From positions 14,694,001 through 14,758,000 of the forward strand of contig OZ024753.1 of NCBI GenBank assembly GCA_964016885.1: DNA of 64,000 nucleotides. The letters run 5' to 3'. The notes beneath the pieces are model-generated. The model saw nothing but the letters and a program-made list of their open reading frames with translations, had not been told where the DNA came from and made no database searches. Source of the stretch: Eledone cirrhosa. Taxonomy: Eukaryota. Within the stretch, counting starts at the first letter, position 1, and every line of letters starts with the position of its first letter. Both the position numbers and the translations under genes were made by a program. Positions 2,707-60,690 of the stretch are shown in pieces.

Positions 2707-2906
2707 GTTATTCCGGGTTGAATCGGAGGTAACCACAGTAAGTAAGGTACTCAATACATAGCAGAGTATAAAAGTTTTAATATAGATGAGATTCTACAGG
2801 ACTAGAACTGTTTCATTCTTTAGAAATGACCTACACCCATCCCACTCCCCACCCTCTCCTACCACTTGTAGAGACCTATAAATACCATTTTTATTTTTTG
2901 ATACCC

Positions 2907-2957
2907 AGATTCCTGATGATTTCTAAAGAATGAAACAGTTCTAGTCCTGTAGAATCT
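2907..2957 (+). ncRNA. Type I hammerhead ribozyme motif (family 1)
   Basis: AGATTC-CTGATGA-tTTCtaaaGAAt-GAAA-CAG ttctagtc CTG-TA-GAATCT. Perfect stem I, intact core, predicted cleavage after GUA (2951). Confidence 0.8.
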
Positions 2958-3080
2958 CACCTATATTAAAACTATATATATATATATATATACGTAGGTC
3001 CCGGGTTGAGTCGGGGATAACCACAGTAAGTAAGGTACTCAATACATGGCAGAGTAAAAAATTTTTTATTGTATAGAAGG

Positions 3081-3131
3081 AGCTTCTACAGGACTAGTAC
3101 TGCTTCATTCAGATGAAATCTTCAGGAAGCT
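3081..3131 (-). ncRNA. Type I hammerhead motif (family 1; GAAG core variant)
   Basis: AGCTTC-CTGAAGA-tTTCatctGAAt-GAAG-CAG tactagtc CTG-TA-GAAGCT. Compensatory stem I change relative to the 2907 copy. Confidence 0.7.
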
Positions 3132-3709
3132 GGGTGTCATATTAAGTTCTGGTATTTATACATTTAGGTAGTGGTAAGGGAGGGGTGGTGGCTGGAGGGG
3201 GCGGGGGGGGGGGGGGGGGAATTGTTTGGGGTAGGATGGTATTTAGATACACAGGACCACAACATAGCACAGGCCGTTTTTTCTTTGGGGAGTGGTCAAT
3301 TAGCCAGAGTGCTTTTTTGAAATAAATAAATAAGTAAATAAATAAATATATATATACATATACATACACATATATATACATATATATATATATATATACA
3401 TACACATATATATACATATATATATATACATACACGTTGAAACAGCCACCTGATCACTGTCCAATTATACATAATTTAGTTTTCAGTAAAGTAAATTGTT
3501 CTTTAACATTCCTGAGGTTGAAGTTTAAATGTAATGGAAATGAAACCAAATCTATGTATTTCTCATAGGTTAAACTACAGGATTAACTTAAGCTGTTTTA
3601 ATCCGGATTATATAAAACATCCTTTCATTGCAACACTAATCACCACTAATGATGCCAGCTGTATTAGCAATGTAGACTTTGCTAATTACTATGGCTGAAA
3701 TATACAAAT

Positions 3710-13098: not shown

Positions 13099-13224
13099 AA
13101 AAGCTGTTTTAATGGCTGTTCTAGCAATTCGTTTTCTCATTTTTATGTGTATGTATATATATATATTTAACATAGAAATGGCTTCTACAGGACTAGAACT
13201 GTTTCATTCGGAAGAAATCATCAG

Positions 13225-13275
13225 GGCTTCCTGATGATTTCTCCCAAATGAAACAGTTCTAGTCCTGTAGAAACC
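13225..13275 (+). ncRNA. Type I hammerhead motif (family 1), back-to-back with an inverted partial copy at 13180-13224
   Basis: GGCTTC-CTGATGA-tttctcccaaat-GAAA-CAG ttctagtc CTG-TA-GAAACC (one stem I mismatch). Confidence 0.68.
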
Positions 13276-16037
13276 ATTTCTATATTAAATATTTATACTC
13301 TGCTATGTATTGAGTACCTTACTTACTGTGGTTACCCCCGACTGGACCTGGGATAAACATCTCTCTCTCTCTCACTCTCTCTATATATATATATATAGAT
13401 ATACCCCTCCAATCCCCATGCAACTCCTCCTCCCTAGCCTCAAGTCCACACTGAAAGTGGTTGTGTATGTATGTGTCATGACAAAAGCGCTCACCCCATG
13501 CTATAAAGTGGTTGTTGTTAGGAAGAACATTCAGCGATAGAAAACTTGCCAAAGAAAGGGTTAGGAGCATCCTTCATTTTATGTCAAAAGAGTACAACTT
13601 CTCCCTTGCACTTGATAGAATATATAATGAAATTGAAGCAAAATACAGACCCCTTGGCCTGTCAGAGGTCAGTAGCCCTGTTTCAGTACTGATCTGGTCT
13701 ATGTAAACCCATCCAACCCTTGCTAGCAGAGAAAACAGATATTAAACAATGATGATGATAAATATATTCACACATGCCCACACAGACATATTTAGTTTGC
13801 ATTACAAGTTAATGTGGTGTTGTTTTAACCTCTCCTCGAATGAAACAATTGTAAATATACGACTACTTTCATCCAATATATCCTTCAGTTATTTGTCTGC
13901 TGTCTTTTTGCCTATTGGACAATCCTTCTAAGGCTATCACATATATTCATAACCCTTGCATTACATATTTCAAATCATTAAAAAAAAAATTATCAAGATT
14001 TTGAAGAGATTTATCTCTTTATTAATTTGACATTTAGAGCATAACTTAACAAAGGTTCTTACATAAAATGATAGTTTCTGACTTAGGCAAAAGACTGAGA
14101 AACTTTTGGGGAGGAAAAAGTTGATTAAATCAACCGCAGTACTTTATTTTAGCGACCCTGTAAGGATGAAAAGCAAAGTTAACCTTGGCAGGATTCGGAC
14201 TCAGAATGTAAATGCCCAGAATTAATGCTTCAAAGCATCAAACGTTCTGACATAGAGTAATGATTGATGATCTTAACCCTTAACCCTTTTCATTACCATA
14301 TTTTGTATGAATGACACTACCTATGATTTTCAAATTTTTTAGGAAATTATCAAGAATTTGGAAGGATTTAATAATATAACTTTCACATTATAATGTTTAG
14401 TAAAGGGTGATGGATTGGCAGAATCAGTAGAGCATCGGACACCATGCTTTGCAGCATAGAGTTACGGTCCTTTACGTTCTGAGTTCAAATCCCGCCAAGG
14501 TTAGCTTTGTCTGTCGTCCTTATGGGGTCGATAAAGTAAAGCACCAGTAATGTACTGGGGTTGATTTAATCTACGTTCCTCTCCATTGCTGGCCTTATGC
14601 TTAAAGTAGAAACAGTTATTATATTTAGTAATATAACTTTTTCATTATTAACCCTTTAGCATTTAAACCCGCTGCATCTGTCCAAACCAGTCAGAACTGG
14701 CCACTCATACTGATGTTATGGTGTTGTTCTCAAAATAAATAACATCAAAATCTCATAGCTTTGATATTATGTGAGAGAATTATGAGATATAAAGCCTTTA
14801 CCATGAAAATATAATTGTTTCTACTTTAGGCACAAGGCCAGCAATTACCCAGTGCATTACTGGTACTTTATTTTATCGACCCCGTAAGGATGAAAGGCAA
14901 ATAATAGTATATATAATGTAATGTAAATGCTAAAGGGTTAAGTTGGTATTTGGTTTTTACATAAAATTATGATAGAAGGATTTTAGGGAAATATAAAATC
15001 CCTTTAAAATAAATAGTTTTTTTATCATAAAAAGATGTGGACTTGTGTGTATGTATGTGTGTCTGTGGAGGGGAAAATATGGACTTGTATGTGTGTGCGT
15101 GTGTGTGTGTGGAGGAGAGGATGTGGGCGTGTGTGTGTGTGTATGTGTGTGTGGAGGGGTCAATGTGGGCTTGTGTGTATGTGTGTGTGTGTGGGGGGAA
15201 GATGTGGGCTTGTGCATGTGTGCATGTACATGTGAATGAGAGAGAGTGTGTGTGTGTGTGTGTGTGCACGTCTGTGTGTGCATGTAAGTGTGTGGATATA
15301 TGTGTGAATGTGTGTGTGTGTGCGTCTGTGTGAGCATGTATGTGTGAATGAGAGAGTGTGTCTGTGTGTGCATGTGTGTGTTCGCAAGTAGATGTGTGGA
15401 TGAGAGAGTGTGTCTGTGTGCATGCAGATGTGTGAATGAGAGGGTGTGTGTGTGTGTGTGCGTGCACATATGTGTGTGCATATATGTGTGAATGAGAGTG
15501 TGTATGTGTGTGTGTGTGTGCGTGCACATATGTGTGTGCATATATGTGTGAATGAGAGTGTGTATGTGTGTGTGTGTCTGTTTGCGTATACAGATGTATT
15601 AAAACATACATGTGTACGTATGTGAGAAAAAGTGTTTTATGACAATATTTCATTATGATTTTCAAATGATTAATTGTAATATAAAAGTTAACCCTACAAC
15701 AGCAAAACCATTGCAACAAGACAGCCAATAATATGTAAAGTGAATCTAAACTATTATAAAGTAAGAAGTGCAGGACTGCGTACAGTTTATAATTTTTTAT
15801 CCCATTAGTAAAATAAGTGGTGGGTGCTATTTTTTCGTGGCGCCTACACGACCACTTTGCAGTGGAATGATAGGGACCCCAGTCCCTATAATCTTATTTC
15901 TACCGCTGAGTAAACTGGACCAATGTGAAATAAAGTGTCTTGCTCAAGGAAACAACACATCACCCGGTCCAAGAATTGAACTCACAACCTTTCGATTGCA
16001 AGCCCAATGCTCTAACCACTAAGCCATGCACCTTCAT

Positions 16038-22307: not shown

Positions 22308-23527
22308 TATACACATATATATATATATATATACACATACATAGAGAGAGGAGGAGAGAAAGAGAGGAGGGGGAGAGAGATAAAGGAGAGAGAGAGGGAT
22401 AAAGTGATGATCAATAATTTGAATTGATTGTGAGTGAAGTTCAGGCAAATCTTATTAATGAAACCAGTGATCGATTGAACACCTTTAAGACCAGGTAAAC
22501 AAGAGTTATACAAAATACCCCCGCCCCCCTCATATTCCAGGTAGATCTGTCGTCTCAGAAATAACAAGTAGCTATAAACTTTTCTTTTATGGTCGTTGTT
22601 AATCCTCAGGTAAGTTTAATCAAGTTGATCAATGATCAAAGACATTCGAGGTGTGACCATGCTATTTTAATTTCTAGATGTAATGTGTCTAGAACTAGTA
22701 AGGTCAGCTGAAATGTTCATAAGCTGACCAAGATACTCTCATGGAATGACCAAATGAGGTTTGTTTTTCAACATAGTCAACAGAAAGAAACAATGCAGTT
22801 ATTAATAAGAAGAGTTGATATTAATGCATGCAAGATTTCACAGCACTAGCATCACTCCTTCATAGTCAACCGATGAACGTTTTAGCTAACCCTTGAACAT
22901 TATTCAAAACACCTTTCATATTTTAAGATAGTAGGGTGTGATTTAAGAAAGCTTTTGCTGCTATTTCTTTCATCTCAAGTTACTCCAGAGATGTCCCATC
23001 TAGTCTCAGCCATGTTCGAACAAACCTGTTATGAAAATCATTCCAGTCACAATCCTCTTTTAAGCTATATTATATCTCAAATTACTTTATCTAATATGGA
23101 GGTCTTCATTTTGTTTTTTTTATATTTAAGATTGTTAAGTGTGTTCAAGGTTAGCTTTGCCTTTCCTGCAGTCATGGTTGATAAAATTTACCAGTTTAGA
23201 ACTGGGGTCGATTCTTGTGTAAAATTCTTTCATGGATGTTAGTTCGTTACTGGGGAGAAACATTTTTTAGGGGTGTTATAAAATATATTTTAACCAAATA
23301 TATTTTATAACACGGTGGTGAATTGGCATTATCAATAGAGGGTTGGACGCCATGCTTTCTAACATAGTTACGTCCCTTTACGGTTTGAGTTCAAATCCCG
23401 TCGAGGTTAACTTTGCCTTTCATCCTTACGGGGTCGATAAAATAAAGTACCAGTAATGTACTGGTTTATTGCTGGCCTTGTGCCAAAAGTAGAAACAATT
23501 ATTTTTGTTTTATTATTAATAAAACAA

Positions 23528-23926
23528 GGGTGGTGATTGGCAGTATCGGTAGAGGGTCGGACGCCATGCTTTGCAGCACAGAGTTACGGCCCTTTACGGT
23601 CCGAGTTCAAATCCCGCCGAGGTTAACTTTGCCTTTCATCCTTATGGGGTCGATAAAATAAAGCACCAGTAACATATTAGCGGTCAACTTTCCCCTCCCT
23701 TGAAATTACTGGTCTTGATCCTATAGTAGAAATATTATGGAGGTGGATTGGCAGTATCAGTAGAGAGTCGGACGCCATGCTTTGCAGCAAAGAGTTACGG
23801 CCCTTTATGGTCTGAGTTCAAATCCCGCCGAGGTTAACTTTGCCTTTCATCCTTACGAGGGTCGATAAAATAAAGTACCAGTAATACACTGGGATAATTG
23901 CTGGCCTTGTGCCAAAAGTAGAAACA
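23528..23926 (+). mobile_element. Head-to-tail dimer of SINE B flanked by a single TSD
   Basis: ATTATTAATAAAACAA at 23512-23527 and 23927-23942 brackets two monomers. Confidence 0.72.
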
Positions 23927-32303: not shown

Positions 32304-32346
<43 letters not shown>

Positions 32347-32356
32347 CATATATATG

Positions 32357-33995
32357 ACAAATGGCTTGTGAGAGCTATACAAGCCATGTATAAAGAAACA
32401 GTCAGCAAGGTTAGAATTAACAACGAATATAGTGAAGAGTTAAGCGTAAAAGTTAGTGTCCATCACGGCTCTGTTCTTAGCCCCCTACTATTTATTATTG
32501 CCCTTCAGGCTATAACAGAGGAGTTCAAGACAGGCTGCCCATGGGAACTCCTATACGCAGACGACCTGACACTCATAGCGGAATCAATGACCAAACTAGA
32601 GAAGAAATTCCAAACATGGAAGCACGGCCTAGAATCAAAAGGCCTTAAAATTAACCTGGCTAAGACTAAAGTTCTAGTTTGTAGGAAAGAAAATAAGGCG
32701 GCAGTCCCTTCCGGGAAATGGTCATGCTCAGTGTGTAGGAAAGGCGTAGGTAGAAACTCCATTTTATGTCCCAAATGCAAAGTATGGGTGCATAAAAGAT
32801 GTAGTGGGATCACAGGTAAGCTAACTAAGAACATAGATTTTACATGTGGTCGGTGCTCTGGTGCAATAAGTAGCAGCAAGTGCCCACAAAATACTAGCTC
32901 TTTCAATTGCACAGAGGGTTCTATAGAAATAGTGGACAGCTTCCGTTACCTGGGTGACAAAATCAGCAGTGGGGGAGGGTGCTCTGAAAGTACAGTAGCT
33001 AGAGTCAGAACTGGATGGAAAAAGTTCAGAGAGCTTATACCACTATTAGCCACTAAAGGGTTCTCCCTAAAAATGAAAGGCAGGTTATACGATGCCTGCA
33101 TACGAACGGCAATGCTGCATCGCAGTGAGACCTGGGCATTGTGTGCAGAGGATATACGCAGACTAGAGAGGAACGAAGCTTGCATGCTCCGCTGGATGTG
33201 TAATAGTAATATACGTGAACGGCTAAGCATAAACAAACTAAGGAAAAAATTAGAAATAAGAGGGATCAGATATTGATTACTCGAGAGAAGGCTACGTTGG
33301 TATGGTCACGTGATGCGCATGAAAGACGACAGCTGTATAACAAAGTGCAGGGCAATAAAGATAGACGGTAGCCACGGAGTAGGCAGACCCAGAAAAACCT
33401 GGGACGACATGATAAATTCCGACCTCACACGCTTACACCTCTCCAAGACAATATCACTGGACCGAGACCTTTGGCGGTACTCAGTAATAGAGAAGACCCG
33501 CCTTACCTAAATATAAAGTAAAACCTACTACAGTCAGTAGGCATCTCTATCAAAACACACCCCCGTCCCACCACCCCCACCCCATCCACACCGCCCCTTT
33601 CAATGTAAAGTTATGTTGGTGTCACAACATCCAGGCCGAAACAAATAAGATCGTGTAGGTGTCACGACAAAAAAACACACAGTCCACGCTGTAAATATGG
33701 CCGTGTAGGCAACACGGTAAAAAGCTCCCAGCCCCACACTGTAAATGTGGTTGGTGTTAGGAAGGGCATCCAGCTGTAGAAAACCCGCCAGACAGTCCAC
33801 GCTGTAATGTGGCCGTGTAGGCAACACGGTAAAAACCTCCCAGCCCCACACTGTAAATGTGGTTGGTGTTAGGAAGGGCATCCAGCTGTAGAAAACCCGC
33901 CAGACAGTCCGCCTCAAGTGGGAAAACTCCCGTCCAAACCCATGCAAGCGTGGAACACAGACGCTAAACCTTGATCATGATGATGATGATGATGA
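32357..33995 (+). mobile_element. 5'-truncated PHD-RTE LINE (related subfamily)
   Basis: ORF 32368-33276 with YADD and PHD finger (32725-32856), premature stop, then 3' UTR and (GAT)n. Confidence 0.92.
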
Positions 33996-42463: not shown

Positions 42464-42505
<42 letters not shown>

Positions 42506-42584
42506 TATCCTGATGTTTTCCAAAAGTAACGGTTGCATTTTGAAAGGGTATGTCAATGTTTATTTATAAAACTGGTATATATTG

Positions 42585-42649
42585 TATTTTGTCTGATGAA
42601 GGCATACTATAATTTAACTTAGTATCCTTGAAATATGTATAATGAAATA
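42585..42649 (+). ncRNA. Minimal type I hammerhead motif (family 2)
   Basis: TATTTTGT-CTGATGA-AGG c ATACTA..TAGTAT c CTT-GAAA-T atgt A-TA-ATGAAATA. Confidence 0.7.
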
Positions 42650-43813
42650 AATATGGTTTTATAAATATAGTTTCCATTTGTTAATATCGTATATATATAT
42701 ATATATATATCATCATCATCATCGTTTAACGTCCATCTTCCACGCTTGCATGGGTTTGGACGGGAGTTTTCCCACTTGAGGCAAGATTGGTTGTCCTGCT
42801 CGTATAGGACTGTCTGGCGGGTTTTCTACGGCTGGATGCCCTTCCTAACACCAACCACATTTATATATATATATATATATATGCAGAAGTTATATTTAAT
42901 TTGTTGGGATTCCAACAAACTTAAAAGTTTATAACTGCTATAGACCACTCAACAGATTACTGGAGTAAATACACAATATATTAATAAATGGACACTATAT
43001 TTATAAAACCATAATTATTTTATTATATATATTTCAAGGGTGACTAAGGCAGTCTTGGTGCGCTATGAACTCCAACCAAAATTCATCTCATTTCTACAGC
43101 CGAGTAAACTGGAGCAATGTGAAATAAAGTGTCTTGCTCAAGGAAACAATACATATATATCCAAAATTAAATTAAGGGTGTCATGTCTGAGAGACATGCG
43201 CCATATCCACTGCAGAATATGTTCAAAGATTCCAATGAATAGATCCGAGCATTTTATGCCAAGTGTGCTTACACACTTTACAAATTATTCCCTGTGATTG
43301 TTTCATGTGTTTATTTTATATATATATCTATATGTCAATCAATTTCTAGTTGATATATACATATATATTTAAAACACAAATTTAAATTTTGTAAACCAAA
43401 ACAATGCGTTATGAAGAATGTTAAATTGCCAAGATAAAAGAATCTTACCTTAGCAAATTTAACGATCCCAAATATTTTCAGGTTTAAAAGCCAATTATCA
43501 AGAGAGTAACCCTATGAGAGACTTAAAGCATTGGGCTTACACTAGTGAGGTTGTGAGTTCGATTTGCTGACCGGCCTGTGTGTTGTTTTCTTGAGCAAGA
43601 CACTTTATTTCACTTTCCTCCAGTTCACTCAGCTGTAGAAATGAGTTGTGACATCACTGGTGCCAAGCTGTATCAGCCATTGCCTTTCCCTTGGACATCA
43701 TTGGTGGCATGGAGAGGGAAGACTGGTATACATAGGTGACTGATGGTCTTCCACAAACAACTTTGCCTGAACTTTCTAGGTGCAGAGCCCATGGTCATTC
43801 ATGACATGAAGGG

Positions 43814-44176: not shown

Positions 44177-44420
44177 GGAGGTGAGTTTTATTGTAGTACA
44201 ATAAAGCAATGCAGATATCGGATAAGAAGCACTCTACAGTTTGTAGGACTGGAATATACATAATATATACACAAATGTTATTGCATGATGATATTTGTTT
44301 TTGAAATGCGCATAATAAAATACATGGAACTCTTTTAACCATCTTTTGATCTTATATATATATATATATGTATATATCAATGATATTAATAAATGGAAAC
44401 AATATTTATAGAACCATATT

Positions 44421-44482
44421 TATTTTATTATATATATTTCAAGGGTACCAAAAGTTTTGGTACGCCCTCATCAGATAAAATA
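44421..44482 (-). ncRNA. Minimal type I hammerhead motif (family 2), sense to the SK pre-mRNA
   Basis: TATTTTAT-CTGATGA-GGG c GTACCAAA act TTTGGTAC c CTT-GAAA-T atat A-TA-ATAAAATA. Perfect 8-bp stem I. Confidence 0.8.
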
Positions 44483-44555
44483 CAAAATTTGTTTTATAAA
44501 TGTTGACATACCCAAGAAACCTGACCTTATCGGTTCAGGTTCAGTTTGGATAGTG

Positions 44556-50190: not shown

Positions 50191-51031
50191 TTAGTTGCTA
50201 TCGTGTGTGTGTGTGTATGTGTGTATAGATGTGTGTGTTTGTGTATATATATATATATTATTATTATTATTGCTGTGGATTGGCAGTATTGGTAGAGGGT
50301 CGGATGCCATGCTTTGACATATAGAGTTACGGCCCTTGCCATTGTCAGTTCAAATCCCGCCAAGGTTAACTTTGCCTTTCATCCTTAGGGGGTCGATAAA
50401 ATAAAGTACCAGTAATGCACTGGGTTATTGCTGGCCTTGTGCCTAATGTAGAAACAATTATTATTATTGCTGTTGTTTGGATTTGCAGTATCGGTAGAGT
50501 CGGACACCATGCTATGCAGCATAGTGTTACGTCCCTTTATGGTCGGAGTTCAAATCCCGCCGAGGTTAACTTTGCCTTTCCTCCTTACAGGGTCAATAAA
50601 ATAAAGCACCAGTAATGCACTGGGGTTGATTTAATCAACTTTTCCCTCCCCGACTTGTGCCTATACTTGAAATCATTATTATTATTGTTATTAATGTCGT
50701 TACCAGTAATACACTGGGATAATTGCTGGCCTTGTGCCAAAAGTAGAAACAATTAAAGGCGGTGAATTGGCAGTATCGGGAGAGGGTTGGACGCCATGCT
50801 TTTCAGCATAGTTACGTCCCTTTACGCTCTGAGTTCAAATCCCGTTTAGGTTAACTCTGCCTCTCACCCTTACGGGGTCGATAAATAAAGTACCAGTAAT
50901 GTACTGGATGCCAAAAGTAGAAACAATTATTATTATTTTTTTTTTTTCGTGCAATGGCCATACTCGATAACGAGGGGGCAGCCATCATATATATATATAT
51001 ATGTGTGTGGGTGTGTGGGTGTGTGTATGTG

Positions 51032-51064
<33 letters not shown>

Positions 51065-51620
51065 GTTAGTATTACCTCCACCCTCACATCTTTATACATA
51101 CACTTACTCACCACCACCACTATTATCAACTATTGTATCCTGTACTTATATATATATATTTTTTCTTATTTTTTTTACTTTTTACATCTCTAACTTCTTT
51201 ACCTCTTTATCATTATATTTTATTATTGATCTTATTATTTTGATTTTACGCTGTATCTCTATATATACCATGTCATATGTGAGTTCTCTAGTATTCTGAG
51301 GATTTGATCAGAGGTAAACACTGTATTTAAGGTCGAGTGATGCAACTTCGAATGATTAGCGGCATCTAGACTCGCCTGATCAATGAAACAATTGTTAATA
51401 CTTGAAATAAAGCCCCTTGTTGTACAGCCGACCATGTTATTCTTCATTCTTTCACTGTCTCTCTCTCTCTATATATATATGTATATATGTATATATATAT
51501 ATATGTATGTATGTGTGTATATATGTATGTATGTATATATGTGTGCGTATATATATATATATATATATATATATAAGTTTAGGAATAACCAAAGAGTGCT
51601 TAGAAATACATTGTTTTATT

Positions 51621-51667
51621 AGCTAACAGTGTTTCATCCATACCCTATGGCAGGAATCATCAGAGCC
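51621..51667 (-). ncRNA. Minimal type I hammerhead motif (family 3)
   Basis: GGCT-CTGATGA-tTCC TGCC atag GGTA t GGAt-GAAA-C act G-TT-AGCT followed by AATAAAA. Confidence 0.62.
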
Positions 51668-52488
51668 TATTAACAAGCCGAAACTATATATATATATATA
51701 TATAGTTTTGTCTTGTTAATAGGCTCTGATGATTATATATATATCATCATCATCATTTTACGTCCGCTTTTCCCTGCTTGCAAGGGTGGGACGGGTCTTA
51801 TTCAGCACAGCATCTCTCCACTCGTCACGGTCCCTCGTCATCTCCACCGTGAGCTTCAATGATCTGAGGTCTGTTCTCACCACCTCCGCCCATGTTTTTC
51901 GTGGTCTATCTCTACCACGTCTTCCTTCAACTATATATATATATGTGTGTGTATATATATATATAATACTTCATTTTCTTCTCAAATCTGTCAGTGTTCT
52001 CATTGTAATATAACTACCAAGACATGGTTATATACGGTTTATGTGGGTGTAGTTGTTATTTCTGTTGTAATTGTTATTGGTGTCATTGTTGTAGTTGCAG
52101 TTACTTTCTCTGACCTAACTTCAAAAGCTGCGTGTAATAGGAGTGGTACTAAGTACTCTGTAGGGAGAAGTATTGGCATAGCTGTGTGGTTAAGGGGTTT
52201 GCTTTCACTATCATGTAATTTCAGGTTCAATCCCACTGTATAGCATCTCAAGCAAGTGTGTTCTACTATAGCTTGGACTTGACCAATGCCTTGTCATTGA
52301 AATTTGATAGAGGGAATTTGCCAAAGTCTGTCATATATATATATGACAGACTTCATTGTGTCTGGCCTCTATAATATATATTAATTGCTCTGGTCTTCCT
52401 TTAGTCCATTGAGCACTTGCCGCATATCTCGAAAATTGGGTTTTGCTTTGTTTTTGGCCACCGTCGAAATACGATCTCGCTGAAATTA

Positions 52489-53684: not shown

Positions 53685-53710
53685 TACTTGTCTATACCAT
53701 ACTAATTCAA

Positions 53711-53765
53711 ACTGCCTGAAGAGGTCACAGCCAAAGATGGCTGTCACTGAAATATATATAGCAGT
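53711..53765 (+). ncRNA. Minimal type I hammerhead motif (family 2-like architecture)
   Basis: ACTGC-CTGAAGA-GGT c ACAGCCA aaga TGGCTGT c ACT-GAAA-T atat A-TA-GCAGT then AATAAA. All stems intact. Confidence 0.83.
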
Positions 53766-53809
53766 AATAAACGAAGCTACATTTTAATCATTTGACTTTT
53801 ATTTAACTT

Positions 53810-53841
<32 letters not shown>

Positions 53842-53851
53842 TTAATATATA

Positions 53852-56698
53852 TTTAAGGCTTACTACCCTGTCTTTAACCTAATTCATTCAATCTGAAAAT
53901 ATTGAAGAGATAAGACACTTTGCCATTCTTCTCTGCTAAAATGTACCACTAGAGCTGATTCAAATTTTCCCAGCCAGCCATCCACCTAATCTACGAAGGT
54001 ATTTTAGCCTACATATTGTCGTTAATATTATGATGTTCCCTGCTGTATTAGCGTTAAATTTTCCCTGCTGTATTAGCGATAAATTTTCGAGGGTTTCTCT
54101 TAGTAGCTTTTTCATGTCGTTAATATTATGATGTTCCCTGCTGTATTAGCGTTAAATTTTCCCTGCTGTATTAGCGATAAATTTTCGAGGGTTTCTCTTA
54201 GTAGCTTTTTTCATGACGTTATTATTGTTAATTTTACTGATGTAGTATTAACTTATTAACTTGGATATTTACCATGCGGTATTCTAATCCTATTGTATCT
54301 CTCTCAGTTCCTACCCCCCCCCCCCCCTCTATGCACTTCTTTAAGGCTTACTACCCTGTCTTTAACCTAATTCATTCAATCTGAAAATATTGAAGAGATA
54401 AGACACTTTGCCATTCTTCTCTGCTAAAATGTACCACTAGAGCTGATTCAAATTTTCCCAGCCAGCCATCCACCTAATCTACGAAGGTATTTTAGCCTAC
54501 ATATTGTCGTTAATATTATGATGTTCCCTGCTGTATTAGCGTTAAATTTTCCCTGCTGTATTAGCGATAAATTTTCGAGGGTTTCTCTTAGTAGCTTTTT
54601 CATGTCGTTAATATTATGATGTTCCCTGCTGTATTAGCGTTAAATTTTCCCTGCTGTATTAGCGATAAATTTTCGAGGGTTTCTCTTAGTAGCTTTTTTC
54701 ATGACGTTATTATTGTTAATTTTACTGATGTAGTATTAACTTATTAACTTGGATATTTACCATGCGGTATTCTAATCCTATTGTATCTCTCTCAGTTCCT
54801 ACCCCCCCCCCCCTCTATGCACTTCTTTAAGGCTTACTACCCTGTCTTTAACCTAATTCATTCAATCTGAAAATATTGAAGAGATAAGACACTTTGCCAT
54901 TCTTCTCTGCTAAAATGTACCACTAGAGCTGATTCAAATTTTCCCAGCCAGCCATCCACCTAATCTACGAAGGTATTTTAGCCTACATATTGTCGTTAAT
55001 ATTATGATGTTCCCTGCTGTATTAGCGTTAAATTTTCCCTGCTGTATTAGCGATAAATTTTCGAGGGTTTCTCTTAGTAGCTTTTTCATGTCGTTAATAT
55101 TATGATGTTCCCTGCTGTATTAGCGTTAAATTTTCCCTGCTGTATTAGCGATAAATTTTCGAGGGTTTCTCTTAGTAGCTTTTTTCATGACGTTATTATT
55201 GTTAATTTTACTGATGTAGTATTAACTTATTAACTTGGATATTTACCATGCGGTATTCTAATCCTATTGTATCTCTCTCAGTTCCTACCCCCCCCCCCCT
55301 CTATGCACTTCTTTAAGGCTTACTACCCTGTCTTTAACCTAATTCATTCAATCTGAAAATATTGAAGAGATAAGACACTTTGCCATTCTTCTCTGCTAAA
55401 ATGTACCACTAGAGCTGATTCAAATTTTCCCAGCCAGCCATCCACCTAATCTACGAAGGTATTTTAGCCTACATATTGTCGTTAATATTATGATGTTCCC
55501 TGCTGTATTAGCGTTAAATTTTCCCTGCTGTATTAGCGATAAATTTTCGAGGGTTTCTCTTAGTAGCTTTTTCATGTCATTAATATTATGATGTTCCCTG
55601 CTGTATTAGCGTTAAATTTTCCCTGCTGTATTAGCGATAAATTTTCGAGGGTTTCTCTTAGTAGCTTTTTTCATGACGTTATTATTGTTAATTTTACTGA
55701 TGTAGTATTAACTTATTAACTTGGATATTTACCATGCGGTATTCTAATCCTATTGTATCTCTCTCAGTTCCTACCCCCCCCCCCCCCTCTATGCACTTCT
55801 TTAAGGCTTACTACCCTGTCTTTAACCTAATTCATTCAATCTGAAAATATTGAAGAGATAAGACACTTTGCCATTCTTCTCTGCTAAAATGTACCACTAG
55901 AGCTGATTCAAATTTTCCCAGCCAGCCATCCACCTAATCTACGAAGGTATTTTAGCCTACATATTGTCGTTAATATTATGATGTTCCCTGCTGTATTAGC
56001 GTTAAATTTTCCCTGCTGTATTAGCGATAAATTTTCGAGGGTTTCTCTTAGTAGCTTTTTCATGTCGTTAATATTATGATGTTCCCTGCTGTATTAGCGT
56101 TAAATTTTCCCTGCTGTATTAGCGATAAATTTTCGAGGGTTTCTCTTAGTAGCTTTTTTCATGACGTTATTATTGTTAATTTTACTGATGTAGTATTAAC
56201 TTATTAACTTGGATATTTACCATGCGGTATTCTAATCCTATTGTATCTCTCTCAGTTCCTACCCCCCCTCTATGCACTTCTTTAAGGCTTACTACCCTGT
56301 CTTTAACCTAATTCATTCAATCTGAAAATATTGAAGAGATAAGACACTTTGCCATTCTTCTCTGCTAAAATGTACCACTAGAGCTGATTCAAATTTTCCC
56401 AGCCAGCCATCCACCTAATCTACGAAGGTATTTTAGCCTACATATTGTCGTTAATATTATGATGTTCCCTGCTGTATTAGCGTTAAATTTTCCCTGCTGT
56501 ATTAGCGATAAATTTTCGAGGGTTTCTCTTAGTAGCTTTTTCATGTCGTTAATATTATGATGTTCCCTGCTGTATTAGCGTTAAATTTTCCCTCCTGTAT
56601 TAGCGATAAATTTTCGAGGGTTTCTCTTAGTAGCTTTTTTCATGACGTTATTATTGTTAATTTTACTGATGTAGTATTAACTTGGATATTTACCATGC
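53852..56698 (+). repeat. Six tandem ~486-bp monomers, each with a 98-bp duplication containing a 25-bp duplication
   Basis: Units start TTTAAGGCTTACTACC at 53852, 54340, 54826, 55312, 55800 and 56281. They differ mainly in poly-C length; the last unit diverges at ~56698. Confidence 0.97.
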
Positions 56699-56959
56699 GA
56701 CCCTCAGTTCCTACCTCACAATTTCCCTCCCCCCCCACCCCCACACACCACCATAGTCTATTCGACCAATCAAACCTAGCATGCCATTTCCACTGCTGCT
56801 GCTGCTACTACCTGCCTAACTAACTCTCTCCTCCTCTGGCGCATCCCAACACACCCTGCCATTACCCCACCACCACTGTCCTTCTAGCCCTCAATTTTCC
56901 CACCGTTATGGATGGATGAGCTGGGAATACACGAGCAACTCTGAATCAATAGATGAAAT

Positions 56960-59900
56960 ATGAATCTGCGAGCTACCAAGCACCCACGTGAAGCGCCAAC
57001 CCAGAGACCCTCCCCTACGAGTGTCGACAAATGCCCAAAACTCCGAGTTGGTACCATCAATGTAGGCTCAATGAAAGGAAGAGCAGGAGAAATCGTAGAA
57101 ATGCTAGAGCGAAAGGAAGTTGATGTATGCTGTGTGCAAGAGACTAGATGGAGAGGAGGGTCTGCTAGAGTCCTTGTAGGAAAAAGCCAGTGCTACAAAT
57201 TTTTCTGGGTGGGAAATGACGATGGGATGGGTGGTGTAGGTATACTATTAGCTGACAAGTGGGTAGATAAAGTAATCTCAGTGTACAGGGTAAATGCAAG
57301 AATCATTAAACTCAGACTAGTCCTGAATAAGACAATTACCACAATAATATCAGCTTACGCACCCCAATCGGGGCTGCCAGACGAACTTAAGGATAGGTTT
57401 TACGAGTCCCTAATACACACTACTGCTCTAACAGACGACAAGGACTTCCTAATCATTGCAGGAGATTTTAACGGACACGTAGGTAAACACTGCGACGGCT
57501 TCAATAGAGTACATGGAGGCCATGGAGTTGGCACAAGGAATGAGGAAGGATTCAGACTTCTAGAATTCTGCGACGCCAATGACATGTCGATATGTAACAC
57601 AAACTTTAAAAAACCCGACAACCACCTGATCACCTATAGATCAGGGGAGCACTCTAGTCAGTTAGATTTTATCCTCATCAGAGGACGTGACAGATGGACG
57701 GTCGTAAACACAAAAGCCTTCCCTAGTGAGGAATGTACATCCCAACATAGCTTAGTTGTCAGCGACCTCACGGTCAGAACTAGACGAGCCCTGAAACAGA
57801 GGCCAACCTGGAGAAGAAAGATCTGGAAGCTGAAAGTCCCCTCAACCAGTAACAGATTTAAAGATATTTTACTCAACGCCTACGACAGTAAAGAAGAACA
57901 GATAGAGACATTTAACGTAGAAGAGAACTGGGAGTTCCTAAAAAATAACTTACTAGAGGCGACGGATGAGGTTTGTGGCTGGAGTAAGACCTCAAGCAGG
58001 AGGAGAGTGACTTGGTGGTGGAACAATAAGGTAGATGAAGCAGTCAAGGCCAAGAGACAGGCATGGAAAGAATGGAAGAACGGGGGGAGCAGGGTACATT
58101 ACATAGAGACCAAGAGGGAAGCTAGGCGACAAGTATACTTAGCTAGGAGGGAAGCAGAGGATAGAAAATTCAAGCATGTTTTACAACGTGAGGACCAGAA
58201 ACAGGAGGTATTCAAGATTGCGAGGCAGTGTGTCAGAGATAGTTGTGATGTCATTGGAGAGAAGTGTATCCGGAATGATAAAGGTGAGCTTGCCCTCACA
58301 AGTGCTGAGAAGAAAGATGCATGGAAGAGTCATTATGATAGATTACTAAATGAGGAGAATGCATGGGAAGAAGAGACCCTACCCCACGTAGACCCTATAG
58401 AGGGACCAGCAGTACAAGTCAGCGGCAGCGTAGTAAGTAAGGCAATCAGAGATATGAAGATAGGGAAGGCAACCGGTCCATCGGGTATAGCTGCCGAGAT
58501 GCTGAAGGCATCTGGGTCTGTAGGTCACACTATAACCACACGTATCGTTAACCAGGTAATACTAGAGGGGGCCATACCAAAAGATTGGTGCAGTAGCATC
58601 ATTGTCAACTGCTACAAAGGTAAAGGCGATGCACTAGATAGAGGAAACTATAGAGGTATAAAGTTGATGGACCAGGTCATGAAAGTAACAGAAAGAGTTA
58701 TAGCACAGCTGATTAGGGACCGGGTGAATATAGACGAGATGCAATTTGGGTTTGTTCCAGGGAAAGGCACCACTGATGCGCTCTTCCTTGTGAGGCAATT
58801 ACAGGAAAAGTACCTAGCTAAAAGTAAGCCACTCTACTTGGCATTTGTCGACCTTGAGAAAGCCTTTGACAGAGTTCCACGTGCAGTAATCTGGTGGGCT
58901 CTTAGAAAACTAGGAGTAGATGAATGGCTTGTGAAAGCGGTACAAGCCATGTATAGGGGAGCAGTCAGCAAAGTTAGGATTGGCAATGAGTATAGCGAGG
59001 AATTTAGCGTACAGGTTGGGGTCCACCAGGGCTCTGTTCTTAGCCCTCTCCTGTTCATCATAGTCCTGCAGGCAATAACGGAGGAGTTTAAGACCGGATG
59101 CCCATGGGAACTCCTGTATGCTGATGACCTCGCACTCATAGCTGAATCTATGGTAGAACTAGAGAATAAATTCCAAACCTGGAAGCAGGGACTAGAGAGA
59201 AAGGGCCTCAAAGTCAACATGACAAAGACTAAGGTCCTTATAAGTAGACGAGAAAACAGAACCCAGATCCCCTCAGGGAAATGGCCTTGCTCAGTATGTA
59301 GGAAAGGTGTAGGTAGGAACTCCATTCTTTGCCCCAAATGCAAACAATGGGTACACAAGAGATGTAGCGGGATCTCAGGAAGCTTAATTAAGAATGTAGG
59401 ATTCACATGCAGCAGCTGTGCTGAAACAGCAAGCAAACAGCCACAGGAAACAAGTACCACCAATCTCTGGGAGGGCCCTGTAGAAACAGTAGACAGCTTC
59501 TGCTACCTAGGTGACCGAATTAGCAACGGAGGTGGGTGCTCAGAAAGTACAATAACTAGGGTAAGAACGGGATGGAAGAAGTTTAGGGAACTACTACCAC
59601 TGCTAGCTGCAAAAGGCTTCTCCCTCAGAATGAAAGGCAGACTGTATGATGCGTGTATCCGAACAGCGATGTTGCATGGTAGTGAGACCTGGGCGCTGAA
59701 GGTGGAAGACTTACGTAGATTAGAGAGAAACGAAGCCTGCATGCTCCGATGGATGTGTAACAGTAATATACGTGAACGACAAAGCATAAATGAATTGAGA
59801 GAGAGACTGAGCATAAGAGGAATCAAATGCTGCGTGCAGGAGAGGCGGTTACGCTGGTATGGACATGTGATGCGTATGAAGGATGACAGCTGCATAAAAA

Positions 59901-60079
59901 GGTGCAGAGCACTAGAAGTTGATGGAAACCGCGGAGTGGGGAGACCCAAGATGACTTGGGATGAGGTGATAAAAGCCGACCTTACCCAACTACACCTCTC
60001 AAAGTCAATGACACACGACCGTGACTTCTGGCGTCACGCAGTAATACAGGGTACCCGACCTCCCATGGGTACATGCTGA
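56960..60079 (+). CDS. RTE LINE polyprotein (APE endonuclease + reverse transcriptase + PHD finger), 1039 aa
   Basis: EN motifs TINVG, VQETRW, SAYAPQ, GDFNGH, QLDFIL, SQH. RT motifs FVDLEKAFDRV, QGSVLSP, YADD, YLG. C4HC3 finger at 59288-59419. No stops. Confidence 0.96.
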   Translation: MNLRATKHPREAPTQRPSPTSVDKCPKLRVGTINVGSMKGRAGEIVEMLERKEVDVCCVQETRWRGGSARVLVGKSQCYKFFWVGNDDGMGGVGILLADKWVDKVISVYRVNARIIKLRLVLNKTITTIISAYAPQSGLPDELKDRFYESLIHTTALTDDKDFLIIAGDFNGHVGKHCDGFNRVHGGHGVGTRNEEGFRLLEFCDANDMSICNTNFKKPDNHLITYRSGEHSSQLDFILIRGRDRWTVVNTKAFPSEECTSQHSLVVSDLTVRTRRALKQRPTWRRKIWKLKVPSTSNRFKDILLNAYDSKEEQIETFNVEENWEFLKNNLLEATDEVCGWSKTSSRRRVTWWWNNKVDEAVKAKRQAWKEWKNGGSRVHYIETKREARRQVYLARREAEDRKFKHVLQREDQKQEVFKIARQCVRDSCDVIGEKCIRNDKGELALTSAEKKDAWKSHYDRLLNEENAWEEETLPHVDPIEGPAVQVSGSVVSKAIRDMKIGKATGPSGIAAEMLKASGSVGHTITTRIVNQVILEGAIPKDWCSSIIVNCYKGKGDALDRGNYRGIKLMDQVMKVTERVIAQLIRDRVNIDEMQFGFVPGKGTTDALFLVRQLQEKYLAKSKPLYLAFVDLEKAFDRVPRAVIWWALRKLGVDEWLVKAVQAMYRGAVSKVRIGNEYSEEFSVQVGVHQGSVLSPLLFIIVLQAITEEFKTGCPWELLYADDLALIAESMVELENKFQTWKQGLERKGLKVNMTKTKVLISRRENRTQIPSGKWPCSVCRKGVGRNSILCPKCKQWVHKRCSGISGSLIKNVGFTCSSCAETASKQPQETSTTNLWEGPVETVDSFCYLGDRISNGGGCSESTITRVRTGWKKFRELLPLLAAKGFSLRMKGRLYDACIRTAMLHGSETWALKVEDLRRLERNEACMLRWMCNSNIRERQSINELRERLSIRGIKCCVQERRLRWYGHVMRMKDDSCIKRCRALEVDGNRGVGRPKMTWDEVIKADLTQLHLSKSMTHDRDFWRHAVIQGTRPPMGTC

Positions 60080-60690
60080 AGCATATAAACAATATGCCCC
60101 CCCCCCCCCCCACCGCAAGGTGGTCGTGGAGGTGCCACGGCAAAAAAGCACCCAGCCCACACTGTAAAGTGGACGTGTAGGCGCCACGAAAAAGCACCCA
60201 GCACTCACTGTAAATGAGGTTGGTGTTAGGAAGGGCATCCAGCTGTAGAAATCAAGCCAGATCAGTTCCTGTATGAGCAAGGCATGGTCAGCCGACCAGA
60301 CAGTGCCCACAACAGGACAACCCGTCTAACCCATGCTAGCGTGGAAGAACGGACGTAAAACGGTGATGATGATGATGATGATGATGATTTAATATAGAAA
60401 TGGCTTCTACAGGACCAGAACTGTTTCATTTCAAGGAAATCATCACAAAAGCCCTGAAATATTTATACTCTGCTATGTTTTGAGTACCTTACTTACTGTG
60501 TTTAACCCTGATTGAAACCAGGACACACACACACACATATATATATACGTTTAAATTTGGTGGTTCACCACAGGGTAGAATTGGTAATTCTTCTATCTTA
60601 ACCAGGATATAATATTAGGAAAGCACTCAACATTACGCAACTCATTCATCTTTGATGTTGAATCACGTTGGTGGTGCGGGAACGGAGTTA

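Follow-up and report, generated by a model that had tools for sequence, protein, structure and literature searches.

Short, mostly head-to-head insertions with a variant type I hammerhead in (TA)n runs of Eledone cirrhosa, likely of the Penelope type

The described systems closest to the elements reported here are the EN+ Penelope-like elements (PLEs), Poseidon_Ac (PAc; Frangieh et al. 2024, PMC11167929) and the metazoan non-LTR retrozymes. EN+ PLEs share with our family a type I hammerhead near the 3′ end of the insertion, an inverted 5′-truncated partner copy and a one-sided tail (PMC4209133, PMC8557442, PMC3846280). A (TA)n insertion bias is described for the EN+ PLE clades with a Zn-finger linker (PMC8557442), and Neptune, Hydra and Naiad have the same (TA)n target as the family studied here. 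The metazoan min-HHR of PLEs has a long helix II, a bulged base after position 9, G10.1-C11.1 and no or a tiny helix III (PMC4209133). In PAc, which has an AT-rich target, the tail is the stretch between two fixed internal start sites of the reverse transcriptase (RT) downstream of the hammerhead, a layout like ours; its ribozyme requires the PAc protein, and insertion in vitro can proceed without the ribozyme (PMC11167929). Metazoan retrozymes, especially axolotl HHR_Amex2 (PMC7229834), resemble our family as non-coding type I repeats with a U.U pair at the base of helix II and a palindromic loop III that allows dimers, and their mobilization by PLEs has been proposed. HHR_Amex2, with U10.1-U11.1 present, cleaves better as a dimer (PMC7229834), and the same pair is known in active hammerheads (PMC3088659). 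How PLEs form head-to-head inverted copies, and what their hammerheads do, are open questions in this field (PMC8557442, PMC11167929).

We analyzed a window of 64,000 nucleotides of Eledone cirrhosa DNA (assembly GCA_964016885.1, contig OZ024753.1, positions 14,694,001 to 14,758,000, forward strand). A type I hammerhead descriptor gave six matches in the window, three in the studied family, at 2907–2957 (+), 13225–13275 (+) and 3081–3131 (−), and three in other families; the mean in 60 block-wise dinucleotide shuffles was 0.05 matches. The hammerhead motifs of the studied family are real and not chance matches. A covariance model made from five copies found six in the window, adding 13180–13230 (−), 60402–60453 (−) and a partial copy at 2789–2832 (−); the five copies used to build the model match it by construction. 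Beyond these six known copies it gave only four weak matches (E 0.048–0.91). An intact type I core (CUGANGA, GAAA and UH in type I order) is present at 2907 (+), 13225 (+) and 13180 (−).

The preliminary description, which was made by reading the letters, had listed complete cores at 2907–2957, 3081–3131 and 13225–13275. The first of these stands in full: the hammerhead at 2907–2957 (+) has a helix I of 6 bp (6/6 paired), CUGAUGA, a U.U pair plus a 3-bp helix II, GAAA, and a helix III of 4 bp with an 8-nt loop holding CUAG, with the predicted cut after 2951 (H17). The second, at 3081–3131 (−), reads GAAG (A15.1G) with A at position 7; its core is damaged rather than complete, and its activity is probably impaired. 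At 13225–13275 (+) the core is complete, but only 5/6 pairs of helix I and two pairs of helix II can form. The core at 60402–60453 (−) is indeed degenerate: it carries C3>G and a surplus base, and its loop III reads CTGG. The partial inverted copy proposed at 2789–2826 is genuine; 2773–2827 matches 2919–2973 at 54/55 bases. One core had been overlooked: 13180–13224 (−) stands head to head with the hammerhead at 13225 (+). Loop III keeps CTAG in five of the six copies and not in the other, so that its constancy was claimed too broadly, whereas the U-U at 10.1/11.1 is constant as described, with U at both positions in 6/6 copies.

The term minimal does not suit these ribozymes, which depart from the metazoan min-HHR consensus in having a short helix II and a helix III of 4 bp; in place of the min-HHR features given above they have the U.U pair plus 3-bp helix II, no extra base, and the 4-bp helix III. 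The metazoan retrozymes differ as well, with a helix III of 2 bp plus a tetraloop compared with 4 bp plus an 8-nt loop here. In a search of the whole window Rfam returned a tRNA-like match only, with no hammerhead family at the gathering score; the best Rfam hammerhead for the studied family was Hammerhead_3, with 12.8 bits where the gathering score is 48.5 (E 2.1). Matches to Rfam miRNA families arise from palindromes and TA repeats and were discarded. The window also holds tRNA-like heads of SINE-type repeats, some of them in tandem, at 15964–16033 (−), 23317–23884 and 50256–50624. As judged from its sequence, the studied family appears to be a new family of a known element class, with a variant hammerhead fold missed by Rfam.

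Other hammerhead elements in the window were noted. A second family, of the classical min-HHR type with a long helix II, an extra base after position 9 and a TATATA/TATGTA loop III, lies between TA runs at 42503–42690 (+), 44378–44520 (−) and, partially, 42880–43050 (−); its copy at 42503–42690 (+) also looks two-armed. A third, minimal hammerhead element at 53710–53815 (+) lies between TA runs directly before a 486-bp tandem array (53852–56683), the units of which contain no hammerhead by the descriptor. At 51575–51735 (−) lies a core resembling a hammerhead, in which helix II has a U.U at its base and a UH is not clearly recognizable; a short (TA)n run separates its 5′ part from a mirror copy, in a geometry opposite to that of the studied family.

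The window copies belong to four insertions: A (2706–2973), B (2993 to at least 3320), C (13164–13358) and D (60387–60527). A, C and D are head-to-head arm pairs, and B shows one arm. In A, the left arm (2706–2827, −) runs from A9 of the hammerhead through the 3′ half of the ribozyme and a full tail to what we call the long end, at (TA)n; the right arm (2830–2973, +) consists of a C-rich upstream region, a TATA-like box and the complete hammerhead, and ends without a tail at the short end, again at (TA)n. The visible arm of B (2993–3320, −) contains about 190 nt of repeated upstream sequence, a TATA-like box, the hammerhead and the tail, and terminates with the long end at (TA)n. In the window, a G run upstream of B (3192–3237) exceeds that of a matching contig of the public run X4 by about 35 nt. 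The tail-less arm of C (13164–13225, −), with its core intact, begins on the final base of the helix I 5′ strand, and its tail-bearing partner (13225–13358, +) begins at base 1–2 of helix I; the two are identical at 56/60 bases. In D, the tail-less arm (60387–60456, −) holds the degenerate hammerhead and abuts an (ATC)n run, and the tail arm (60457–60527, +) is without a ribozyme, being truncated or having lost it by deletion. The arms of one insertion share subfamily marks (54/55 in A, 56/60 in C), so they likely had the same RNA or the same subfamily as their source.

In all three two-armed insertions the tail is on one arm only, and the other arm stops about 21 nt past the cut site; the long and short ends are 69–70 nt apart (A and C), compared with the 30–40 nt tails reported for PLEs. 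This pairing of arms with a tail on one side is the diagnostic feature of the insertions, and it had escaped the preliminary description. The body of about 90 bp to which all the hammerheads were said to be linked is this tail of about 70 nt. It is located on the 3′ side of the ribozyme, had been given as the reverse complement, and is found on one arm per insertion only (4/4), being absent from the arms at 2907, 13180 and 60402. The proposed preference for (TA)n was borne out by the mapped ends, five of seven of which are within 10 nt of a (TA)4+ run, compared with 15% of the window. Among the seven window arms a start within helix I is clear in two (C left and C right), with the short arm of D likely a third. 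A left starts at A9 and the tail arm of D past the ribozyme; A right and B begin upstream of the predicted RNA start described below. The insertions are non-coding across the roughly 330 nt seen; the ATGs in ribozyme and tail meet stops within a few codons, in contrast to PAc, whose ORF starts inside the hammerhead (PMC11167929).

Two hairpins are predicted in the tail. Hairpin H1 (2748–2768, −), with 5 bp and an 11-nt loop, begins about 6 nt after the short end, and its stem is invariant in 4/4 tails. The terminal hairpin (2712–2727, −), with 4 bp and an 8-nt loop, lies just inside the long end; 16/16 cells are paired in the four tails with two compensatory changes, a result reached by 39/500 shuffles and thus not significant alone. 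A second copy of a tail hairpin, with a tandem junction, was considered in 3221–3320 and rejected: its similarity to the tail was not significant (equalled in 89/1000 and 697/1000 shuffles), the window sequence there is not that of most reads, and none of the listed loose ends enters the tail.

Helices I, II and III can all form, with 6, 3 (after the U.U) and 4 pairs in copy A. Over the five copies 89% of the cells are paired, compared with 32–49% when the alignment is slid. Three variants of helix I retain 6/6 pairs. Covariation of stem I, asserted earlier, is visible as double changes at two pairs, but in five copies it is not significant alone: 29/500 shuffles did as well for cells and 206/500 for pairs. 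The minimum-energy prediction for the monomer is not the hammerhead fold, and in the context of the tail the helix probabilities are near 0. A predicted hairpin covering the cleavage site (2948–2965, +) would compete with helix I; a hairpin of 5–8 bp over the cut site was predicted in 6/6 arms, in folds made without a shuffle control.

The potential for cleavage as a dimer, also raised in the preliminary description, fared unevenly. Self-pairing of the helix III strand has a predicted energy of −12.8 kcal/mol, which was reached by 17/1000 shuffles, and co-folding of two copies gave helices I and III between the molecules, the arrangement of a dimeric hammerhead, with helix II out of register. 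The gain of the whole ribozyme on dimerization, however, was not above that of shuffles (155, 51 and 189 of 300). The dimer potential of the ribozyme is thus modestly supported by these models.

The arms that keep upstream DNA contain the TATA-like box TATAAATA, a predicted promoter element. In insertion A it is at 2877–2884 (+), with its first T 30 nt before base 1 of helix I, and in insertion B at 3153–3160 (−), with its first T 29 nt before that base; the background probability that a 5-nt slot holds the box is about 0.002. Because the upstream regions of A and B are related (1/1000 shuffles), the spacing counts as one observation. We take this spacing to put the start of RNA polymerase II at about the first base of helix I, and the bases at that predicted start in A are compatible with a pyrimidine-flanked initiator. 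The position indicated by the TATA spacing appears to coincide with that of the junction cluster, and this is the one testable addition of the analysis. A rotifer pLTR is reported to have a TATA plus an initiator-like motif (PMC3846280); the Drosophila Penelope promoter is TATA-less (PMC2377424). Our search for literature tying Penelope hammerheads to a TATA and a transcription start, which covered few subscription papers, found none.

Related copies were sought in public sequencing runs, namely X1 and X4 (organism A, partial matches) and three RAD runs with the same species label. Runs X5–X19, whose shares were small, were left aside, and no RNA run was among the matching runs listed. Aligned to 2993–3192 were 4233 contigs of X1, 186 of X4, 4595 reads of X20 and 4674 of X21. 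The family is abundant, with thousands of related records having the same two ends beside TA repeats. Among the loose ends listed, TA-rich ones before 2998–3001 correspond to the long end (451–871 reads per row) and those before 3072 to the short end (467 and 487 reads). The loose ends that lie behind 3110, in 522 and 717 reads with an agreement of 0.61–0.64, run through the remaining core into a second, opposite hammerhead; the joint is within the helix I 5′ strand, as it is in insertion C. This junction consensus from RAD reads represents few loci, of unknown number and unevenly sampled, and the RAD libraries were apparently cut at AATT, a motif that also occurs within the consensus. The listed opposite-strand joints are scattered, over 3107–3128 on one side. 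Positions 3128 and 3301, where many molecules end, coincide with AATT and were read as library cut sites and not as biology.

The variants in these records fall mainly, among those listed, in loop II and the outer pairs of helix I. In the 40 of 84 variant rows listed, the ribozyme variants concern loop II, loop III, position 7, helix I and C3; loop II variants are frequent, at 30–72% per position. One helix I pair varies on both sides (32% at 3083, and 72% of 259 reads at 3129), the two changes being unphased. C3>U was found in 94/1064 reads, near where arms break off. The A15.1G of insertion B is a rare variant, as 4904/4980 RAD reads carry the canonical A there. Upstream of the core the depth drops, partly from divergence between subfamilies. 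The far-upstream region of B (3221–3320) is a repeat in its own right, present in 62 contigs of X1, and is connected to the G-rich sequence that precedes the ribozyme; one 201-nt contig of X4 appears, from its equal length and depth, to span both. No link from 3221–3320 into the tail was present among the loose ends listed (8 of 10 rows).

The parent element was sought in the window. EN+ PLEs carry an RT/GIY-YIG ORF; no PLE domain was found for the studied family in 11 of the 91 window ORFs of at least 100 aa, including the ORFs beside the insertions, and no tandem monomers were seen in the window. A 1040-aa ORF at 56957 was rejected as parent because its APE-type endonuclease and RT make it a LINE. 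That LINE, at 56957–60079 (+), holds the only RT ORF among those tested that looks intact, and has a PHD finger inside its C-terminal part, and a fragment at 32308–33276 has the same RT and PHD domains. The family may be non-autonomous, as was proposed earlier, but the parent could also be a PLE that bears pLTRs: we give about an even chance to a parent that is a non-coding unit mobilized in trans and somewhat less than even to the pLTR of an autonomous PLE. These two candidates are close, since animal retrozymes are argued to derive from pLTRs (Li, Clavereau and Pollet, bioRxiv 10.64898/2026.07.22.740005). Scans of metagenomes with the ribozyme pattern and with the tail pattern gave 0 matches each. 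Four phage contigs from a viral scan were set aside as judged convergent: their motif is arranged as type III and agrees with the studied family in no more than core and helix II. In these contigs (L001–L004, IMG/VR) the type III hammerhead-like motif is at 1977–2027, immediately ahead of the start of an ORF, and its helix II likewise consists of a U.U plus 3 bp; it scores 19.5 bits against a gathering score of 48.5, and the likeness is likely convergent.

The explanation that we favor, and consider reasonably probable as a whole, is that a PLE reverse transcriptase and endonuclease likely inserted these short and non-coding units, most of them head to head, into (TA)n. Insertion of the PLE type is in itself very probable; the layout, the read ends and the TA flanks support the earlier view of a ribozyme-bearing retroelement family of Penelope type that favors (TA)n. 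The parent would be transcribed from a TATA/initiator promoter, and its RNA would start at about the first base of helix I. The PLE enzyme would nick both strands of a TA run, and two cDNAs would be primed from two fixed internal RNA sites that lie some 21 and 91 nt beyond the cut site. From the 5′-most copy of these priming sites the enzyme would run off the RNA 5′ end, and the two short cDNAs would be joined head to head inside helix I, giving palindromes like C. The location of some arm junctions within the helix I 5′ strand suggests a reverse transcriptase running off the RNA 5′ end; to this run-off, with joining of the short cDNAs inside helix I, we give just short of an even chance. Because A right and B carry the promoter region, they would need a longer template, a downstream repeat unit or a 3′ pLTR. 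The ribozyme was probably under selection in the parent lineages. It would cleave mainly as a dimer or with the help of a protein, and most genomic copies would be promoterless and inert.

The same PLE-type insertions could have acquired their head-to-head junction by fold-back, self-priming or microhomology at the start of the core, in a manner unrelated to the RNA 5′ end. Self-priming on the antisense template has been proposed for palindromes at inverted rotifer PLE junctions (PMC3846280), and such a mechanism would accommodate both the identical letters at the junctions of C and D and the several arms that start elsewhere than helix I. It does not account well for the outer ends: in 3/3 two-armed insertions each arm has its own fixed end site, the tail being present on one arm and missing from the other, and C and D differ in which arm carries it, so that two priming events fit better than one fold-back. 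The TATA spacing, moreover, points to the same place as the junction cluster. We therefore regard a junction of this origin as unlikely. Quite unlikely, in our judgment, is that the copies are truncated remains of a classical tandem non-LTR retrozyme, with a monomer of about 300–400 nt that was excised by two ribozymes, circularized and copied round the circle. The unit seen in B, of about 290–330 nt, is near that size, no ORF signal is present in the roughly 190 nt upstream of its ribozyme, and the U.U of helix II is as in axolotl HHR_Amex2; yet the window has no tandem copy, the studied copies being, unlike the metazoan retrozymes, mostly short two-armed fragments. Neither do the reads favor a circle, because no listed loose end joins the far-upstream region to the tail (8 of 10 rows) and the long-end loose ends listed are TA-rich, and no look-alike was found among indexed tandem arrays.

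It is very improbable that the insertions are DNA palindromes of a MITE-like or satellite-like kind, whose hammerhead match has been inherited as a relic without a role. They are palindromic and TA-flanked, the monomer is not a hammerhead by folding energy, and core or helix is damaged in most window copies, as such a relic would allow. Their outer ends, on the other hand, are unequal because of the one-sided tail, and their inner junctions vary, unlike terminal inverted repeats; a ribozyme without a role also fits poorly with three helix I variants that keep 6/6 pairs and with listed variants that are mainly in loops. The PLE-type explanation remains the one we prefer. We would add to it, as a doubtful extension, that the palindromes are twin strong-stop products, arising by double priming near the capped 5′ end of the RNA and run-off at the start of helix I, and that the ribozyme, at the very 5′ end, is a self-decapping switch turned off by the hairpin over the cut site and on by dimerization.

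In the main texts of the literature on octopus hammerheads we found nothing on the studied family, a description of which may exist in supplements or in Repbase/Dfam. The element class, the U.U helix II, dimeric cleavage, the tail and the (TA)n bias have all been published, so that the finding itself is ordinary for the field. The ribozyme variant shows that Rfam-based counts overlook abundant animal hammerheads. The thousands of very short two-armed copies offer a direct test of dual priming with run-off against self-priming, and a run-off joining inside helix I would help to explain how mirrored PLE copies form. If the strong-stop extension is true, the junctions would map both the RNA 5′ end and the step that makes the inverted copies of PLEs.
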